A DNA stretch of 64,000 nt, taken from the sequence record PQ615101. One strand, written 5' to 3'. A model generated the notes under the pieces. That model did no database searches. It was not told the DNA's origin and saw only the letters and a program-made list of their open reading frames with translations. The position numbers and the translations under genes are program-made. Positions 8,976-56,341 of this stretch are shown piece after piece. Source of the stretch: Shigella phage SP21535. Position 1 is the stretch's first letter; every line of letters starts with the position of its first letter.

Positions 8976-8980
8976 CTTTA

Positions 8981-14100: not shown

Positions 14101-14575
14101 ATGAAAACATATCAAGAATTTATTACTGAAGCAGCTATTAATTCTCAAAATTATTGCTGAATCTTTTACTGATCTTTTGAAATTTAAAAAAGGACAGAAA
14201 ATTACTGCTGTATTAGATGATGGTACAGAAGTTGAGATGGATGTACAGGGATATAATTATGCAGTAGATGGAAAACTGTATAATAAATCTCATGCTAAAT
14301 TTGATTCATTTGATGATTTTGTTAATACAGTTGAAGATGAAAAAACTCGTCGATCCATTGCAACTGGTGATGCTAAGGTTCTTATGGCGCATGGACATGA
14401 ACGTATTCGCGCTAAACAGAATAAAATGGGTGAAGATAATTTCGCATTAGTTGGTTATCAATCTGGTAAACAAACTTATGGTTATCAGCGTACTGCTACC
14501 ATGTATAATAAAAATGGTAAAATCGCTTTCGTGAATAGTAAAGGTTCTATTCAGTACGTTAAATCGTTCAAATAA
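14101..14575 (+). pseudogene. internal-protein-like gene (MKTYQEFITEA targeting motif) interrupted by a frameshift
   Basis: ATG frame stops after 19 codons (..AINSQNYC*); downstream 132-aa frame is open from 14105 but has no ATG; shift maps near A4 run 14147-14150. Confidence 0.5.
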
Positions 14576-15954: not shown

Positions 15955-16175
15955 TGGCAAAGATAATTATTGAAGGTTCTGAAGATGTGCTAAATGCTTT
16001 CGCCGAGTGGTTTAGTAATTCAGGCGAACAGCAATTTAATGAAGCGTGGAACATGGGTGATATTAGTGGAATTTATCCTACGACAGAAATTTCTGTTCAA
16101 GGATATGGAATTCATGAACCTATTCGTTTAGTTGAATATGATTTGGGAACAGGTGAGGAAGTAAAATATGATTGA
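15954..16175 (+). CDS. hypothetical protein
   Basis: 73 aa acidic ORF, translationally coupled to neighbours. Confidence 0.5.
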   Translation: MAKIIIEGSEDVLNAFAEWFSNSGEQQFNEAWNMGDISGIYPTTEISVQGYGIHEPIRLVEYDLGTGEEVKYD

Positions 16176-16434
16176 AGACATTAAAGGTTATAAGCCACAT
16201 ACTGACGATAAAATCAGTAAAGTGAATGCTATCAAAGACGCTGAAGTTCGTTTAGGACTTATCTTTGATGCTTTATACGATGAATTCTGGGAAGCATTAG
16301 ATAATTGTGAAGACTGCGAATTCGCAAAGAATTATGCTGAAAGCCTCGATCAGTTAACTATTGCTAAAACGAAACTCAAAGAAGCCAGTATGTGGGCTTG
16401 TCGTGCTGTGTTCCAACCAGAGGAAAAATACTAA
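16168..16434 (+). CDS. hypothetical protein
   Basis: 88 aa ORF. Confidence 0.5.
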   Translation: MIEDIKGYKPHTDDKISKVNAIKDAEVRLGLIFDALYDEFWEALDNCEDCEFAKNYAESLDQLTIAKTKLKEASMWACRAVFQPEEKY

Positions 16435-16711
16435 TGGCTCAATTAAGCGCAGGGTTTGGTTATGAGTATTATACTGCCCTCGTCGTGTATCTGTTGCTCC
16501 TAAGAAAATTCAAAGTCTTGATGACTTCCAGGAAGTAGTTCGTAACGCTTTCCAGGACTATGCACGTTATCTTAAAGAAGATTCACAGGACTGTCTCGAA
16601 GAAGATGAAATTGCTTACTATGAGCAGCGTCTTGAACAGCTCAAAAATCTACATGAGGTTCGTGCAGAAGTTTCAAAGTCTATGAATAAATTGATTAGAT
16701 TTAAAGAATAA
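16434..16711 (+). pseudogene. small gene upstream of regB with a frameshift (possible pseudogene, recoding site or sequence error)
   Basis: ATG 16434 frame stops after 34 codons; the -1 frame codes a clean 81-codon segment (..[31 protein letters not shown]..) with no start; junction near CCC run 16476-16478. Confidence 0.45.
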
Positions 16712-16713
16712 CT

Positions 16714-16743
16714 GTTTACTTTTCCTCTTGACTGTGGTATAAT
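16714..16743 (+). promoter_or_regulatory. early promoter
   Basis: GTTTAC / TTGACT then TGGTATAAT. Confidence 0.6.
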
Positions 16744-16770: not shown

Positions 16771-17232
16771 ATGACTATCAATACAGAAGTTTTTATCCGT
16801 CGAAATAAGCTCCGTCGTCACTTTGAGTCGGAGTTTCGTCAAATTAACAATGAGATTCGTGAGGCATCAAAAGCAGCAGGGGTCTCATCGTTTCATCTAA
16901 AATATTCTCAACATCTTCTTGATCGTGCAATTCAACGGGAGATTGATGAGACATACGTTTTTGAATTATTCCATAAAATAAAAGACCATGTTTTAGAAGT
17001 TAATGAATTCCTGAGTATGCCTCCGCGTCCTGACATTGACGAGGATTTTATTGATGGGGTTGAATATCGTCCTGGACGTTTAGAAATCACAGATGGAAAT
17101 CTTTGGCTTGGATTTACAGTTTGTAAACCTAACGCGAAGTTCAAAGACCCGTCACTTCAATGTAGGATGGCAATTATCAACAGTCGTCGTTTACCAGGAA
17201 AGGCTTCTAAAGCAGTAATTAAAACTCAATGA
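16771..17232 (+). CDS. regB: RegB site-specific endoribonuclease
   Basis: 153 aa, matches T4 RegB as I recall it (MTINTEVFIRRNKLRRHFESEFRQ..). Confidence 0.9.
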   Translation: MTINTEVFIRRNKLRRHFESEFRQINNEIREASKAAGVSSFHLKYSQHLLDRAIQREIDETYVFELFHKIKDHVLEVNEFLSMPPRPDIDEDFIDGVEYRPGRLEITDGNLWLGFTVCKPNAKFKDPSLQCRMAIINSRRLPGKASKAVIKTQ

Positions 17233-31665: not shown

Positions 31666-32139
31666 ATGTTATTGACTGGCAAATTATACAAAGAAGAAAA
31701 ACAGAAATTTTATGATGCACAAAACGGTAAATGCTTAATTTGCCAACGAGAACTAAATCCTGATGTTCAAGCTAATCACCTTGACCATGACCATGAATTA
31801 AATGGACCAAAAGCAGGAAAGGTACGTGGATTGCTCTGTAATCTCTGTAATGCAGCAGAAGGTCAAATGAAGCATAAATTCAATCGTTCTGGCTTAAAGG
31901 GACAAGGTGTTGATTATCTTGAATGGTTAGAAAATTTACTTACTTATTTAAAATCCGATTACACCCAAAATAATATTCACCCTAACTTTGTTGGAGATAA
32001 ATCAAAGGAATTTTCTCGTTTAGGAAAAGAGGAAATGATGGCTGAGATGCTTCAAAGAGGATTTGAATATAATGAATCTGACACTAAAACACAATTAATA
32101 GCTTCATTTAAGAAGCAGCTTAGAAAGAGTTTAAAATGA
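31666..32139 (+). CDS. 49: endonuclease VII (Holliday junction resolvase)
   Basis: 157 aa; matches T4 EndoVII as I recall it, including zinc-binding CLICQ..CNLC. Confidence 0.9.
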   Translation: MLLTGKLYKEEKQKFYDAQNGKCLICQRELNPDVQANHLDHDHELNGPKAGKVRGLLCNLCNAAEGQMKHKFNRSGLKGQGVDYLEWLENLLTYLKSDYTQNNIHPNFVGDKSKEFSRLGKEEMMAEMLQRGFEYNESDTKTQLIASFKKQLRKSLK

Positions 32140-32673
32140 CGATTGAAAAAGAAATTGAAGGATTAATTCATAAAACTAATAAAGACCTTTTAAACGAGAA
32201 TGCTAATAAAGATTCTCGTGTTTTTCCAACTCAACGGGACCTTATGGCTGGTATTGTGTCTAAACATATTGCCAAAAATATGGTCCCGTCTTTTATTATG
32301 AAAGCGCATGAAAGCGGAATTATTCACGTGCACGATATTGATTATTCCCCTGCTCTTCCATTTACTAATTGCTGTTTAGTAGATTTAAAAGGAATGCTTG
32401 AGAATGGATTTAAGCTCGGTAATGCACAGATTGAAACTCCTAAATCAATCGGTGTTGCTACTGCAATTATGGCACAAATTACTGCGCAGGTTGCTTCTCA
32501 TCAATATGGCGGAACGACTTTTGCGAATGTAGATAAAGTACTTTCTCCTTATGTTAAACGCACCTACGCAAAACATATTGAGGATGCGGAAAAATGGCAA
32601 ATCGCTGATGCATTGAATTATGCTCAATCTAAAACAGAAAAAGACGTATACGATGCATTCCAGGCGTATGAGT
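32136..32673 (+). CDS. nrdD: anaerobic ribonucleotide reductase NrdD, exon 1
   Basis: ORF 32136..32681; 5-prime splice site placed after U32673 by a 6-bp P1 pairing of exon AUGAGU with GCUCAU in the intron. Confidence 0.75.
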
Positions 32674-33706
32674 TAATTTAATTCAGGCTCATGTAAAACC
32701 GGTCTAAACGGGGAACCTCTCTAGTAGACAATCCCGTGCTAAATGTTCTTTTGAACTAAATGCCTAACGACTAACCGTGATGAATGTAGCGGTGTAGAAT
32801 AGAAGCTAATGCTATTCGAAACGGCCGGCATCGAAAGATGAAGATATAGTCTAATCTGCATGGCGACATGCAGCAGTCATCTTGTATAAATAAGATTATC
32901 TTATGAATACGAGGTGAAACAATGAAATGGATAAAAAGACGTTGTACTAAAATAAAAGATAAAGACGCATTTACATACTTAGTTAAGTTTTCTAATGGCG
33001 ACATTTATATCGGTTATAAAAAATTTAGAACAATTAAAAACAAGCCCACAAACTGGAAAACTTACACAACGTCATCTAAGTATATAAATGAACGCTTAAA
33101 AACTGATACACCTACTAAATGGATAATTTTAAAAACATTTGATAGTTATAAAGATGCATTAAAACATGAAGAAGAGGTCATACGTAAATATTTTTATAGC
33201 AAAAAATGTTTAAATAAATCCATAGGCGGTAAAAAGTTTTATAAGCATCCGGATACTGAAGAACATATTCAAAAATTAAGAGATGCTCATAAGGGTAAAG
33301 TGTTATCCGAATCTCATAAAAACAATATAAAATCTTCTGTAGCTGAATATTATGCTAAAAACGGAAGATCTAAGGAACATGTGCAAAATAATATCAATAG
33401 TCGAAAAAGTAAAAAACAAGTATCGATAAAGCTTAAAAATAAAACTTTTAGAAGTTTTAAAAAAGCAGCGGAATATTTAAATTGCACTGAAAGTGAAGTC
33501 GAAACTCATCCTCTTGTTTTGAGTATTAAGACTACTATTCATAAAGTTCCTGAATATGTGGTTGTTGACGGTATTAAGTATACGTCTTATATAGAAGCAG
33601 CTAAAGCGCTAAATTTTCATCCTAGCACTATAAAAGAACGTTGCATATCTATGGACTATCCAAATTTTGTTGTTTCATATAAACGGGCATGAATTTGCGA
33701 CTCATG
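32674..33706 (+). mobile_element. group I intron in nrdD (T4 nrdD/sunY-type) carrying I-TevII
   Basis: Starts UAAUU like the T4 td intron; core CUAAACGGGGAACCUCUCUAGUAGACAAUCCCGUGCUAAAU; inferred length 1033 nt equals the T4 nrdD intron. Confidence 0.75.
32922..33692 (+). CDS. I-TevII: intron-encoded GIY-YIG homing endonuclease I-TevII
   Basis: 256 aa ORF inside the intron; FTYLVKFSNGDIYIGYKK motif. Confidence 0.8.
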   Translation: MKWIKRRCTKIKDKDAFTYLVKFSNGDIYIGYKKFRTIKNKPTNWKTYTTSSKYINERLKTDTPTKWIILKTFDSYKDALKHEEEVIRKYFYSKKCLNKSIGGKKFYKHPDTEEHIQKLRDAHKGKVLSESHKNNIKSSVAEYYAKNGRSKEHVQNNINSRKSKKQVSIKLKNKTFRSFKKAAEYLNCTESEVETHPLVLSIKTTIHKVPEYVVVDGIKYTSYIEAAKALNFHPSTIKERCISMDYPNFVVSYKRA

Positions 33707-34998
33707 CTGAATATAATGATGAAGTAAATACACTTTTCAGCTCTAATGGACAAACGCCTTTTGTAACAATTACATTTGGTACGGGAACTGACTGGACTGA
33801 ACGAATGATTCAGAAAGCAATTCTGAAAAATCGTATTAAAGGTCTTGGTCGTGATGGGATAACTCCTATTTTCCCTAAGCTTGTTATGTTCGTTGAAGAA
33901 GGTGTTAATCTTTATAAAGACGATCCGAACTATGATATTAAGCAGCTTGCTCTAGAGTGCGCAAGCAAAAGAATGTATCCTGATATTATTTCAGCTAAGA
34001 ACAATAAAGCTATCACTGGTTCATCTGTTCCTGTTTCTCCGATGGGATGCCGTAGTTTCTTGAGCGTATGGAAAGATTCGACTGGCAATGAAATTCTTGA
34101 TGGACGTAATAATCTTGGTGTTGTAACATTGAATCTTCCTCGCATCGCGTTAGATTCTTATATTGGAACACAGTTCAATGAACAGAAATTTGTTGAATTG
34201 TTCAATGAGCGAATGGATTTATGTTTTGAAGCTTTGATGTGTAGAATTAGTTCCTTAAAAGGAGTTAAAGCGACTGTTGCTCCTATTCTTTACCAAGAAG
34301 GTGCATTCGGGGTTCGTCTTAAACCTGATGACGATATAATTGAGTTATTTAAAAACGGCAGAAGTTCAGTGTCTTTGGGATACATTGGTATTCACGAATT
34401 AAATATTCTTGTCGGTCGTGATATTGGACAAGAAATTTTAACTAAAATGAATGCTCATCTTAAACAGTGGACTGAAAGAACCGGATTTGCTTTTAGTTTA
34501 TATTCGACTCCTGCTGAAAACCTTTGTTACCGCTTCTGTAAACTTGATACAGAAAAATATGGAAGTGTAAAAGATGTTACCGATAAAGGCTGGTACACTA
34601 ATAGTTTCCATGTTTCAGTAGAAGAAAATATTACTCCGTTTGAAAAGATTTCTCGTGAAGCGCCATATCATTTCATTGCGACAGGTGGTCACATTTCTTA
34701 TGTTGAACTTCCTGATATGAAAAATAACTTAAAAGGCCTTGAGGCCGTGTGGGATTATGCTGCACAACATTTAGATTATTTTGGTGTTAATATGCCAGTA
34801 GATAAATGTTTTACATGCGGAAGCACCCATGAAATGACTCCTACTGAAAACGGATTTGTTTGTTCTATTTGTGGAGAAACTGATCCTAAAAAGATGAATA
34901 CAATAAGAAGAACATGCGGATATCTTGGAACTCCTAGCGTTGTTCCATGGAATTTAGGTAAAATGAAAGAAATGGTAAAACGAGTAAAACATGCATAG
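33707..34998 (+). CDS. nrdD: anaerobic ribonucleotide reductase NrdD, exon 2
   Basis: 3-prime splice after G33706, exon 2 begins CUGAA (P10 pairing); C-terminal glycyl radical motif RRTCGYLG; combined product about 609 aa. Confidence 0.75.
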
Positions 34999-53889: not shown

Positions 53890-54819
53890 ATGTCTATTGC
53901 AGATTTAAAATCCCGTTTGATTAAAGCTTCCACTTCTAAAATGACTGCTGAACTGACTACATCTAAATTCTTTAATGAAAAGGATGTAATCCGTACAAAA
54001 ATCCCAATGCTTAATATCGCTATTTCTGGCGCGATTGATGGCGGCATGCAGTCTGGTTTAACTATTTTCGCAGGGCCTTCTAAACACTTTAAATCAAATA
54101 TGTCTTTGACTATGGTTGCGGCATATTTAAACAAATATCATGACGCAGTTTGTCTATTCTATGATAGCGAATTTGGTATTACTCCAGCTTATTTGCGATC
54201 CATGGGAGTTGACCCGGAACGAGTAATTCATACGCCAATTCAGTCAGTTGAACAGCTGAAAATTGATATGGTGAACCAGCTTGAAGCTATTGAGCGTGGT
54301 GAAAAGGTTATTGTATTCATCGACTCAATCGGTAATATGGCTTCTAAGAAAGAAACGGAAGATGCCTTGAATGAAAAATCTGTGGCAGATATGACTCGTG
54401 CTAAATCACTGAAGTCATTATTCCGTATTGTTACTCCTTATTTTAGCATTAAAAATATTCCATGTGTTGCGGTTAACCATACAATTGAAACAATTGAACT
54501 GTTTAGTAAAACCGTGATGACAGGTGGTTGTGTTATTGCTGGTACTAAAATCCAGATGTCCGATGGTTCTACTAAAGCAGTTGAAGATATTCGTCCAGGT
54601 GAGCGTGTTAAAACCATGGTCGGTGATAATGAAGTAACTTATGTTTGGGACCCCGAAACTCTGGCTGAAGGTACTCCTGAATGTTTCGAAATTGAATTCG
54701 AAGACGGTTATAAAGTAACTACTTCAGATACTCACAAGTTCCTGGTAATGGTTAAAGACATTCCAACTTGGGTTGAAGCTAAAGATTTAGTAGCTGGAAT
54801 GGATTGTGTTGTAAGGTAA
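53890..54819 (+). CDS. uvsX: UvsX recombinase N-terminal fragment (residues 1-213) fused in frame to a putative intein N-half
   Basis: First 213 aa match T4 UvsX up to ..FSKTVMTGG (Walker A GPSKHFKS); then 96 aa starting with Cys; ends TAA TAA. Confidence 0.85.
   Translation: MSIADLKSRLIKASTSKMTAELTTSKFFNEKDVIRTKIPMLNIAISGAIDGGMQSGLTIFAGPSKHFKSNMSLTMVAAYLNKYHDAVCLFYDSEFGITPAYLRSMGVDPERVIHTPIQSVEQLKIDMVNQLEAIERGEKVIVFIDSIGNMASKKETEDALNEKSVADMTRAKSLKSLFRIVTPYFSIKNIPCVAVNHTIETIELFSKTVMTGGCVIAGTKIQMSDGSTKAVEDIRPGERVKTMVGDNEVTYVWDPETLAEGTPECFEIEFEDGYKVTTSDTHKFLVMVKDIPTWVEAKDLVAGMDCVVR
54529..54816 (+). other. putative split-intein N-terminal half (Int-N, 96 aa)
   Basis: Begins CVIAGTKIQMSDGS (block A Cys1), contains TTSDTHKF (block B TxxH); absent from T4 uvsX. 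Confidence 0.65.
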
Positions 54820-54822
54820 TAA

Positions 54823-54864
54823 ATATGGGTACCGGACTAATGTATATTTTTGAGGTACCCATAT
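54823..54864 (+). promoter_or_regulatory. hairpin sequestering the endonuclease RBS and start codon
   Basis: Perfect 11-bp inverted repeat ATATGGGTACC (54823-54833) / GGTACCCATAT (54854-54864), 20-nt loop; 3-prime arm covers GAGG SD and A,T of ATG 54863. Confidence 0.6.
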
Positions 54865-55585
54865 GAATTTTGTCTATAAAATTGTGTTCAACGATAGAAT
54901 TAAAAACGGCACTCCGCCATATTACTACATAGGGAGCAAGACAAATGCTTCTTATGTAGATGGTAAGATTATTGACGCCCACGGTCGTGAGTACTATGGC
55001 TCATCGAGATATCCCGGATATCATGATTTTATCAATAATGTTACTGTTGAAATATTGGAGCAATATGATGATATTAAACACACTAAACTGCTAGAGCGCG
55101 AAAATTTCTATCAGAAACAAGTAAATGTTAAAACAAATCCAGATTATTTTAATTTAGATTATGCTTGTGGGCATAATTCATATGCTAATGCTGATTTTGC
55201 ATCATACAAGCATTATATAACAGGTAAATGTATTCGTCTTGAAAGAAACCATCCGCTTGTTAAATCTGGTGTGTATGTTGGCGTCACAAAAGGCGTGAAA
55301 TCTTCTGATGAACACCGCAAGCACATATCAGAAGGTATTACCGGAGAAAACAATGGGTTCTATGGTAAGAAACACACTAAAGAAACAATTAATAAAATAT
55401 CAGAAAAAGCAAAGAAAAGATTAAAGCATTCCCATCCTAGACAAAAAGGTGTTATCATAAACGGTATTGAATACCGGGGCGTCAGACCTGCTGCAAGAGC
55501 GTTGGGAATTAATCCTAACACAATTATCAACAAAATTAAAGCTAATATAAAAGGATGGGCTTATGCAGTAGATGCACGCGGTTAA
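54863..55585 (+). CDS. free-standing GIY-YIG homing endonuclease between the two uvsX fragments
   Basis: 240 aa; VYKIVF..YYIGSK GIY-YIG-type N-terminus, NUMOD-like linker repeats, C-terminal helix-turn-helix-like region. Confidence 0.75.
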   Translation: MNFVYKIVFNDRIKNGTPPYYYIGSKTNASYVDGKIIDAHGREYYGSSRYPGYHDFINNVTVEILEQYDDIKHTKLLERENFYQKQVNVKTNPDYFNLDYACGHNSYANADFASYKHYITGKCIRLERNHPLVKSGVYVGVTKGVKSSDEHRKHISEGITGENNGFYGKKHTKETINKISEKAKKRLKHSHPRQKGVIINGIEYRGVRPAARALGINPNTIINKIKANIKGWAYAVDARG

Positions 55586-55693
55586 GGCATTCGAAGATAT
55601 GGTAAAAGAATTTGGAATGAACATGACAATCAAGATTATGCTTTCATGAAATATGTATATTGAAACTAGCTACTACGAAACACAAGGTAAAGT

Positions 55694-55798
55694 ATGAAAA
55701 TTAAATCTGTTAAATCTGTTGGTAAAAAAGAAGTCTATGATTTGTCTGTTGCTGACGTCGAGCATTATGTTTTAGAAAATGGTATCGTTACACACAAC
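55694..55798 (+). other. putative split-intein C-terminal half (Int-C, 35 aa)
   Basis: Ends His-Asn followed by Thr +1 extein residue; block F/G-like VYDLSVADVEHYVLENGIVTHN. Confidence 0.65.
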
Positions 55799-56341
55799 AC
55801 AGGCGTAATGTATTCGGCTGATACTGTATTCATTATCGGTAAGCGCCAGATTAAAGATGGTTCTGATCTTCAGGGGTATCAATTTGTTCTAAATGTAGAA
55901 AAATCTCGTACCGTTAAAGAAAAAAGTAAATTCTTTATTGATGTTAAATTTGACGGTGGCATCGATCCTTATTCTGGATTGTTAGATATGGCTCTTGAAT
56001 TAGGATTTGTGGTAAAACCTAAAAATGGCTGGTATGCTCGTGAATTTCTTGACGAAGAAACAGGCGAGATGATTCGCGAAGAAAAATCTTGGCGTGCAAA
56101 AGATACCAACTGCACTACATTCTGGGGTCCTTTATTTAAGCATCAGCCATTCCGAGATGCTATTAAACGTGCTTATCAGTTAGGTGCTATTGATAGTAAT
56201 GAAATTGTTGAAGCTGAAGTTGATGAATTAATTAACTCAAAGGTTGAAAAATTTAAATCTCCAGAAAGTAAAAGTAAATCAGCAGCTGATTTAGAAACTG
56301 ACCTAGATCAGTTAAGTGATATGGAAGAATTTAATGAATAA
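55694..56341 (+). CDS. uvsX: putative intein C-half (35 aa) fused in frame to UvsX C-terminal fragment (180 aa)
   Basis: Own AAGG SD and ATG; ..VYDLSVADVEHYVLENGIVTHN then TGVMYSADTVFIIGKRQ.. matching T4 UvsX C-terminal region. Confidence 0.85.
   Translation: MKIKSVKSVGKKEVYDLSVADVEHYVLENGIVTHNTGVMYSADTVFIIGKRQIKDGSDLQGYQFVLNVEKSRTVKEKSKFFIDVKFDGGIDPYSGLLDMALELGFVVKPKNGWYAREFLDEETGEMIREEKSWRAKDTNCTTFWGPLFKHQPFRDAIKRAYQLGAIDSNEIVEAEVDELINSKVEKFKSPESKSKSAADLETDLDQLSDMEEFNE

Follow-up and report, generated by a model that had tools for sequence, protein, structure and literature searches.

Layout of the locus

The window, a stretch of 64,000 nucleotides, comes from a T4-like phage (Tequatrovirus); of the phages in the collection, PD112 comes nearest to it (about 97% identity). 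At 16434-16711 it contains an interrupted small gene, situated on the + strand between vs.4 (16168-16434, +) and regB (16771-17232, +). The vs.4 gene, an intact frame of 88 aa, closes with TAA at 16432-16434; the ATG of the interrupted gene, at 16434-16436, shares one base with this stop (TAATG, 16432-16436). Frame 0 from this ATG runs for 34 codons and then meets a TAG at 16536-16538. In the -1 frame, a TGA at 16463-16465 is followed by 81 open codons (16466-16708) and a TAA at 16709-16711; this frame offers no ATG, GTG or TTG before the ATG for Met84, its first canonical start, close to the end, and no ORF of at least 20 aa is listed in it. The arrangement is thus as the original prediction had read it: an ATG overlapping the upstream stop, a frame of 34 codons, and a segment of 81 codons ending at 16711 without a start codon.

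The two frames hold the two parts of one gene. The 5' fragment (16434-16538, +, frame 0), defined by translation and tblastn, has authentic codons for residues 1-15 (16434-16478, 100% identity), followed by 19 out-of-frame codons and the TAG. The remainder (16478-16711, +, -1 frame) encodes residues 16-92, which align by tblastn at 16478-16708 with 100% identity, and the TAA; residues R17, R18 and K24 and both helices of the protein are encoded here, without a start codon of their own. Between the two lies the site of a one-base deletion, a CCC run at codon 16 (Pro16), which alignments and indel lists place at 16477-16479 (+). The switch between frames had been assigned to the right run and site, but with coordinates (16476-16478) one base too far to the left.

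Downstream, the intact regB gene encodes an endoribonuclease of 153 aa, as given by the ORF list and the annotations of relatives. In the gap between vs.3 and regB, a consensus scan finds a promoter-like site (16715-16743, +; TTTACT, 17 nt, TG-TATAAT) with 10/12 consensus matches and an extended -10; the annotation of phage DalCa has a promoter at the equivalent place. Because of this site, expression of regB is probably independent of read-through from the interrupted gene.

Identity of the interrupted gene

By its sequence and position, the interrupted gene is an ortholog of T4 vs.3 (TadIV-1), not of vs.4 (Acb2). In the T4 annotation, vs.4 (267 nt) and vs.3 (279 nt) overlap by one base and are followed by regB; the order in the window is the same, so the neighbourhood of T4 vs.3 to vs.8, to which the gene had been assigned by synteny, is the correct one. 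Vs.3 of PD112 aligns to the window by tblastn in two pieces, residues 1-15 in frame 3 and 16-92 in frame 2, each at 100% identity. Addition of one C, which had been proposed to restore a protein of about 92 aa, yields a product of exactly 92 aa; phages ESh18, P8, Isf-Pm2 and 215Ecol030PP have an intact Vs.3 with 100% identity to it. This repaired product matches PDB 9WIW_A, the TadIV-1 of UPEC07, across residues 1-92 (E-value 5.6e-38), as well as PHROG 2037 (2e-40), and a profile of the Vs.3 family, compared to the PDB sequences, matches 9WIW with an E-value of 2e-60. The N-terminal motif MAQxxxGFG is invariant throughout the family.

Relatives of the repaired product, on whose existence the original prediction depended, are plentiful: homologues are encoded in 720 phage records, of which 628 cover at least 80%. 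The tblastn matches of Vs.3 homologues are single, unbroken pieces in 60/60 sampled cases. The position between vs.4 and regB is also kept in 10/10 contigs with the same Acb2 protein as the window; contigs carrying this exact protein are just 92-94% identical to the window. In the window itself, the long-form ORF (more than 80 aa), including the loop with R17, R18 and K24, is interrupted, and the codons for these residues occur only in the -1 frame that has no start.

The original prediction had mentioned vs.4 as the Acb2 gene of this neighbourhood; in the window, vs.4 is the upstream gene (16168-16434), which matches Pfam PF24729 (Acb2_Tad1_hairpin) with an E-value of 1.2e-19 and PDB 7UQ2, 'Vs.4', with 9e-56. 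The comparison to proteins of the T4 vs.3 and vs.4 types, proposed at the outset, places the repaired product in the Vs.3 family. A reading of vs.3 as a diverged paralogue of Acb2 was rejected, as BLASTP gives no alignment to the Vs.4 of the window, and so was membership of the Acb2/Tad1 hairpin family, the repaired product having no match to PF24729 at an E-value of up to 0.1. The sole Pfam match of the vs.3 product, to Tex_N, scores 18.6 bits where the cutoff is 32, and was set aside; no NCBIfam family matched.

An AF2 model of a family member with 98% identity is disordered over residues 1-21 and has helices at 29-52 and 57-91; with a pLDDT of 68 and a pTM of 0.30 it is of moderate confidence, and its layout agrees with the crystal structure as described in PMC13243611. 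Foldseek searches returned no matches from the PDB and nothing usable from BFVD.

In a number of phages (HY01, PEC04, IME537, G2540 and others), Vs.3/TadIV-1 carries a wrong label, such as 'endoribonuclease RegB domain-containing protein' or 'putative pyrimidine dimer DNA glycosylase', and PDB entry 9WIW is itself called 'Endoribonuclease'. Such labels have apparently spread from the neighbouring genes, regB and denV, and they hide the function of Vs.3 from name-based searches. A literature search under the name 'vs.3' gave only unrelated abstracts; the function was reached through the match of the sequence profile to PDB entry 9WIW.

Function of TadIV-1

Chen et al. (Nat Commun 2026, PMC13243611) recently renamed the T4 Vs.3 protein TadIV-1 and found it to be the only inhibitor of type IV Thoeris in T4; a T4 delta-vs.3 mutant is viable, yet sensitive to this defence. 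In type IV Thoeris, the TIR protein makes the signal N7-cADPR, which turns on a caspase-like effector; TadIV-1 sequesters N7-cADPR with a KD of about 216 nM, without degrading it (PMC13243611). The protein forms homodimers; each protomer consists of two antiparallel helices and a flexible N-terminal loop, which makes up the binding pocket. R17, R18 and K24 of T4 Vs.3 are needed, and in the UPEC07 homologue deletion of residues 2-18 is tolerated, while deletion of 2-32 is not (PMC13243611). Natural proteins of about 70 aa without the loop, the 'short group', are inactive, and to account for this group the authors raise the idea that TadIV-1 may be a liability on some hosts; T6 is treated as being without the gene (PMC13243611).

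A missing C at codon 16

Where the window has CCC, its relatives have CCCC, and all other bases of the aligned 121-nt stretch are identical. Apart from the missing C, the window's vs.3 matches that of phage DalCa with 0 mismatches, and the repaired protein shows no secondary decay. The span across the site measures 142 bases in 60/60 records of relatives, sampled down the ranking, versus 141 in the window. The allele was searched with a 33-nt probe, in which every 28-mer seed spans the C run, against a phage collection of 50,697 records (August 2025), and by exact DNA scans in three further collections, the window's own record being absent from all of them. The three-C allele occurs in 0/50,697 phage records and in no contig of IMG/VR, the JGI metagenomes or GTDB; the four-C allele, which served as positive control, is found in 305 phage records and 5 IMG/VR contigs.

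Taken as it stands, the sequence makes the gene null, since the break at codon 16 precedes R17, R18, K24 and both helices, and the downstream part has no start; the 34-aa product keeps only residues 1-15, a part found dispensable in PMC13243611, and lacks these three residues as well as the helices. The interruption is thus either a very recent knock-out or a slip of sequencing, and not a special decoding signal.

Possible recoding and residual products

The least probable of the explanations considered is that the two frames are joined by programmed -1 ribosomal frameshifting, or by another form of recoding, to give full-length TadIV-1. The shift needed would indeed be -1, and the frames overlap over 16466-16535, as they do at the programmed -1 sites of dnaX, of IS-element transposases and of phage tail-assembly chaperones, where the -1 frame likewise carries conserved C-terminal coding sequence. 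In contrast to these, however, the window has neither a slippery heptamer nor a stimulatory structure, and its arrangement is found in no relative. The overlap contains no heptamer of the form X XXY YYZ, and at the CCC, as read from the sequence, slippage would leave the P-site tRNA paired to UGC, a codon that is non-cognate. A run of four As at 16505-16508 is the sole slip-compatible site and would let a single tRNA-Lys slip; but the same run is present in the intact genes, where it encodes Lys-Lys, and slippage at this point would exchange R17 and R18 for unrelated sequence. The RNA downstream folds with -16.2 kcal/mol, versus a mean of -17.8 for its shuffles (z = +0.52), 138/200 of which fold at least as well. 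Nor is the interruption conserved, every relative examined having an uninterrupted ORF. Lacking heptamer, stimulatory structure and conservation, programmed frameshifting was rejected.

Only slightly more credit can be given to the idea that the split gene still works, either by initiation within the -1 frame, which would yield a product resembling Pro16-Glu92, or by a new function of the 34-aa peptide. The UPEC07 homologue, which retains its anti-defence activity without residues 2-18, indicates that a product starting near residue 16 could work, and the peptide ends in a hydrophobic tail (LVVYLLLL). Against initiation, the -1 frame has no ATG, GTG or TTG ahead of Met84, inspection by eye finds no Shine-Dalgarno-like motif before any near-cognate codon there, and the only in-frame ATT (Ile26) comes after R17, R18 and K24. 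Exact look-ups of the 34-aa product and of the 48-aa product returned no records, and hence no sign of a maintained peptide; we consider a working split gene very improbable.

A second frameshift in the window

Comparison of the PD112 genes to all 64 kb of the window finds only two single-base frameshifts, neither of them in a large or essential gene: the one in vs.3, and one in the gene of an internal head protein with a DUF7412 domain (14101-14575, +), detected by tblastn and domain match, in which AAA has become AAAA at 14147-14150. Its product stops after 19 aa (TGA, 14158-14160), just past the capsid-targeting leader MKTYQEFITE, while the other 142 codons are preserved intact in a different frame. 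The AAAA allele is absent from the 50,697-record phage collection, and the gene has 0 mismatches to that of IME537 besides the extra A. Both frameshifts fall within the block from e to regB, which is wholly missing from T6.

Eight other contigs have the exact 132-aa remainder of the DUF7412 protein on record, and the five that were aligned, which come from independent sources, are all damaged near the 5' end, no further in than about codon 16: ATG has become ACG in two of them and CAA has become TAA in a third, while one has lost 2 nt and one has gained a T. Natural knock-out of this gene is thus recurrent, as substitutions and lesions outside homopolymers cannot be homopolymer read errors, and the frameshift in the window is, on this comparison, probably genuine. 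It looks as though an injected protein has been inactivated repeatedly, perhaps under selection.

Two further genes of the window are in two parts. The uvsX gene (53890-56341) is split over two ORFs, the first of which (53890-54819) carries the RecA domain, followed by a Hint-like tail beginning CVIAGT, while the second (55694-56341) opens with an intein C-terminal block ending in VTHN|T and continues into the UvsX C-domain; between them, at 54863-55585, lies a free-standing ORF with NUMOD3 and NUMOD1 homing-endonuclease motifs. This order of parts is in keeping with a split intein plus a homing endonuclease, but the Pfam intein matches are below cutoff. The arrangement is common to about 8-13 phages, with SYGD1 and BYEP01 at 99.9% identity. 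The nrdD gene (32136-34995) aligns as two parts about 1 kb apart, 32136-32672 and 33712-34995, between which CE1, IME537 and SYGD1 annotate a homing endonuclease; this is consistent with the known nrdD intron arrangement.

Sequencing slip or genuine mutation

Two explanations of the missing C are left. According to one, the phage DNA has four Cs and encodes an intact, functional TadIV-1 of 92 aa, the C run having been under-called and perhaps the A run at 14147 over-called. A change of one base in the length of a homopolymer is the classic signature of such an error, and both unique indels of the window are of this kind, single bases in short homopolymers. Neither the three-C allele nor the AAAA allele at 14147 occurs among the 50,697 phage records, and the former is unique among roughly 500 close relatives. 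Both genes otherwise show 0 mismatches to an intact allele elsewhere, vs.3 to that of DalCa and the DUF7412 gene to that of IME537; known intact proteins match the repaired one at 100% identity, and the lesion has no measurable evolutionary age. Within stretches that have 0 mismatches to some relative, the two indels are the sole differences, a pattern that read errors fit better than neutral divergence does.

Other observations speak against an error. The rest of the coding sequence, including large essential genes, is free of frameshifts, and none is found at the 437 homopolymer runs of 5-7 bases in the window. At first, an indel counted as private if it differed from five relatives, which were compared over the initial 41 kb; beyond this point the comparison was to PD112 alone. 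Seven one-base indels in the first 41 kb differ from all five relatives; four of these are non-coding, in a window whose non-coding share is estimated at 7-8%, and one lies in a compensated divergent stretch. The three non-coding ones that were tested are common to 1, 2 and 21 other phage genomes and are therefore natural polymorphisms; by this measure the assembly is not littered with random indels. Moreover, the companion frameshift is in a gene with documented, independent natural knock-outs, so that the main argument for an error-prone assembly, the presence of two frameshifts, falls. We therefore regard a sequencing slip as a serious possibility, if one short of even odds.

One of the non-coding indels has a history of its own: the extra T at 8977-8979 (TT to TTT), in a non-coding stable-RNA region downstream of the tRNA-Arg, is common only to SYGD1 among the 50,697 phage records. 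SYGD1 also shares the split-uvsX segment at 99.9% identity, which points to a fine-grained mosaic ancestry of the window.

The explanation we prefer, with a probability of roughly 0.58, takes the deletion for a true mutation of very recent date, by which the function of TadIV-1 is lost, and we infer that the lesion is present in the DNA itself, not just in the assembly. What tips the balance is that the window's sole other frameshift hits a gene in which different knock-outs occur elsewhere, although, with just two events, the arguments from distribution (homopolymer runs, private indels, and the ratio of substitutions to indels in near-identical tiles) are suggestive and statistically weak. 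That vs.3 is dispensable is apparent from the viability of T4 delta-vs.3, from the inactive short group found in nature and from an independent frameshift outside a homopolymer in another assembly, that of the protein designated P0042.

By analogy to its homologues, the intact 92-aa TadIV-1 would be a homodimeric two-helix sponge, whose N-terminal loop binds N7-cADPR and so lets the phage escape type IV Thoeris. With the loss of one C from the four-C run at codon 16, the coupled ATG would yield only the 34-aa peptide, and the downstream 77 codons would be left without a start. The phage would then be TadIV-1-null and Acb2-positive, and would be expected to be sensitive to type IV Thoeris, like T4 delta-vs.3.

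Comparison to other alleles and sponges

In its position between vs.4 and regB, and in the complete identity of its two halves to Vs.3 of PD112, the gene of the window resembles the known TadIV-1 genes (T4 Vs.3; UPEC07, 9WIW); its repaired 92-aa product falls in the 'long' group, the active one, and includes R17, R18 and K24. It differs from them in that its frame is broken at codon 16, by an allele seen in no other sequence searched.

The window, as written, shares with the short group, with T6 and with P0042 the condition of a phage of the same family that has no working long-form TadIV-1, and these cases show that TadIV-1 is dispensable and is lost repeatedly. The form of the loss is different in each. 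Members of the short group are diverged orthologues (about 40% identity over residues 25-92) with starts of their own, and not the result of recent frameshifts. In T6 (MH550421, 60494-61511), a deletion extends from e to regB: regB adjoins the lysozyme gene e, and the internal-protein genes, denV and vs.8 through vs.3 are missing, including both Acb2 and TadIV-1, which explains why the TadIV-1 paper counts T6 as being without the gene. P0042 has lost a single A at another site, which is not a homopolymer (GAAGTAGT to GAAGT-GT), and does so in two contigs, one of them of 170 kb.

Two other altered forms of the gene were encountered. The Vs.3 protein P0021 has an in-frame deletion of 8 aa in helix 1; this damaged allele and that of P0042 were noted together with the locus at 592-843 of a Logan contig (SRR18174317). 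The protein P0043, from an ENA contig of 642 nt, is 57 aa long; it begins as Vs.3 (residues 1-30) and, at an 'SLD' motif common to both proteins, passes into the C-terminus of Vs.4. On so short a contig, faulty assembly or recombination is its probable origin.

Acb2 (T4 Vs.4; 7UQ2), the anti-CBASS cyclic-nucleotide sponge, is similar to TadIV-1 in being a small, helical, oligomeric sponge for a defence signal, and its gene lies directly upstream of vs.3, to which it is translationally coupled. Acb2 belongs, however, to a different family, PF24729 being found on vs.4 and not on vs.3, and it is intact in the window.

Implications

The TadIV-1 family, its function and its natural loss, through the short group and the T6 deletion, are already described; the window contributes no more than a further null allele or a further sequence error, and no new element or mechanism. 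Should the missing C be an artefact, the use of the finding would lie in a cleaner annotation: the C should be put back and the gene named TadIV-1, in place of the 'hypothetical protein', 'endoribonuclease' or 'pyrimidine dimer glycosylase' of many records. A bolder proposal, which we consider unlikely, is that both private frameshifts are real and were selected, TadIV-1 and the DUF7412 protein being liabilities on some hosts; a defence system might sense these proteins, or be triggered by the sequestration of a signal, and the phage, like the independent genomes in which the DUF7412 gene has other knock-outs, would have escaped by inactivating them. The block from e to regB would in that case be a place where counter-defence genes are gained and lost time and again, seen here at the resolution of single mutations. 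If the deletion is real, the phage would represent a natural TadIV-1-null, Acb2-positive genotype, of modest value.
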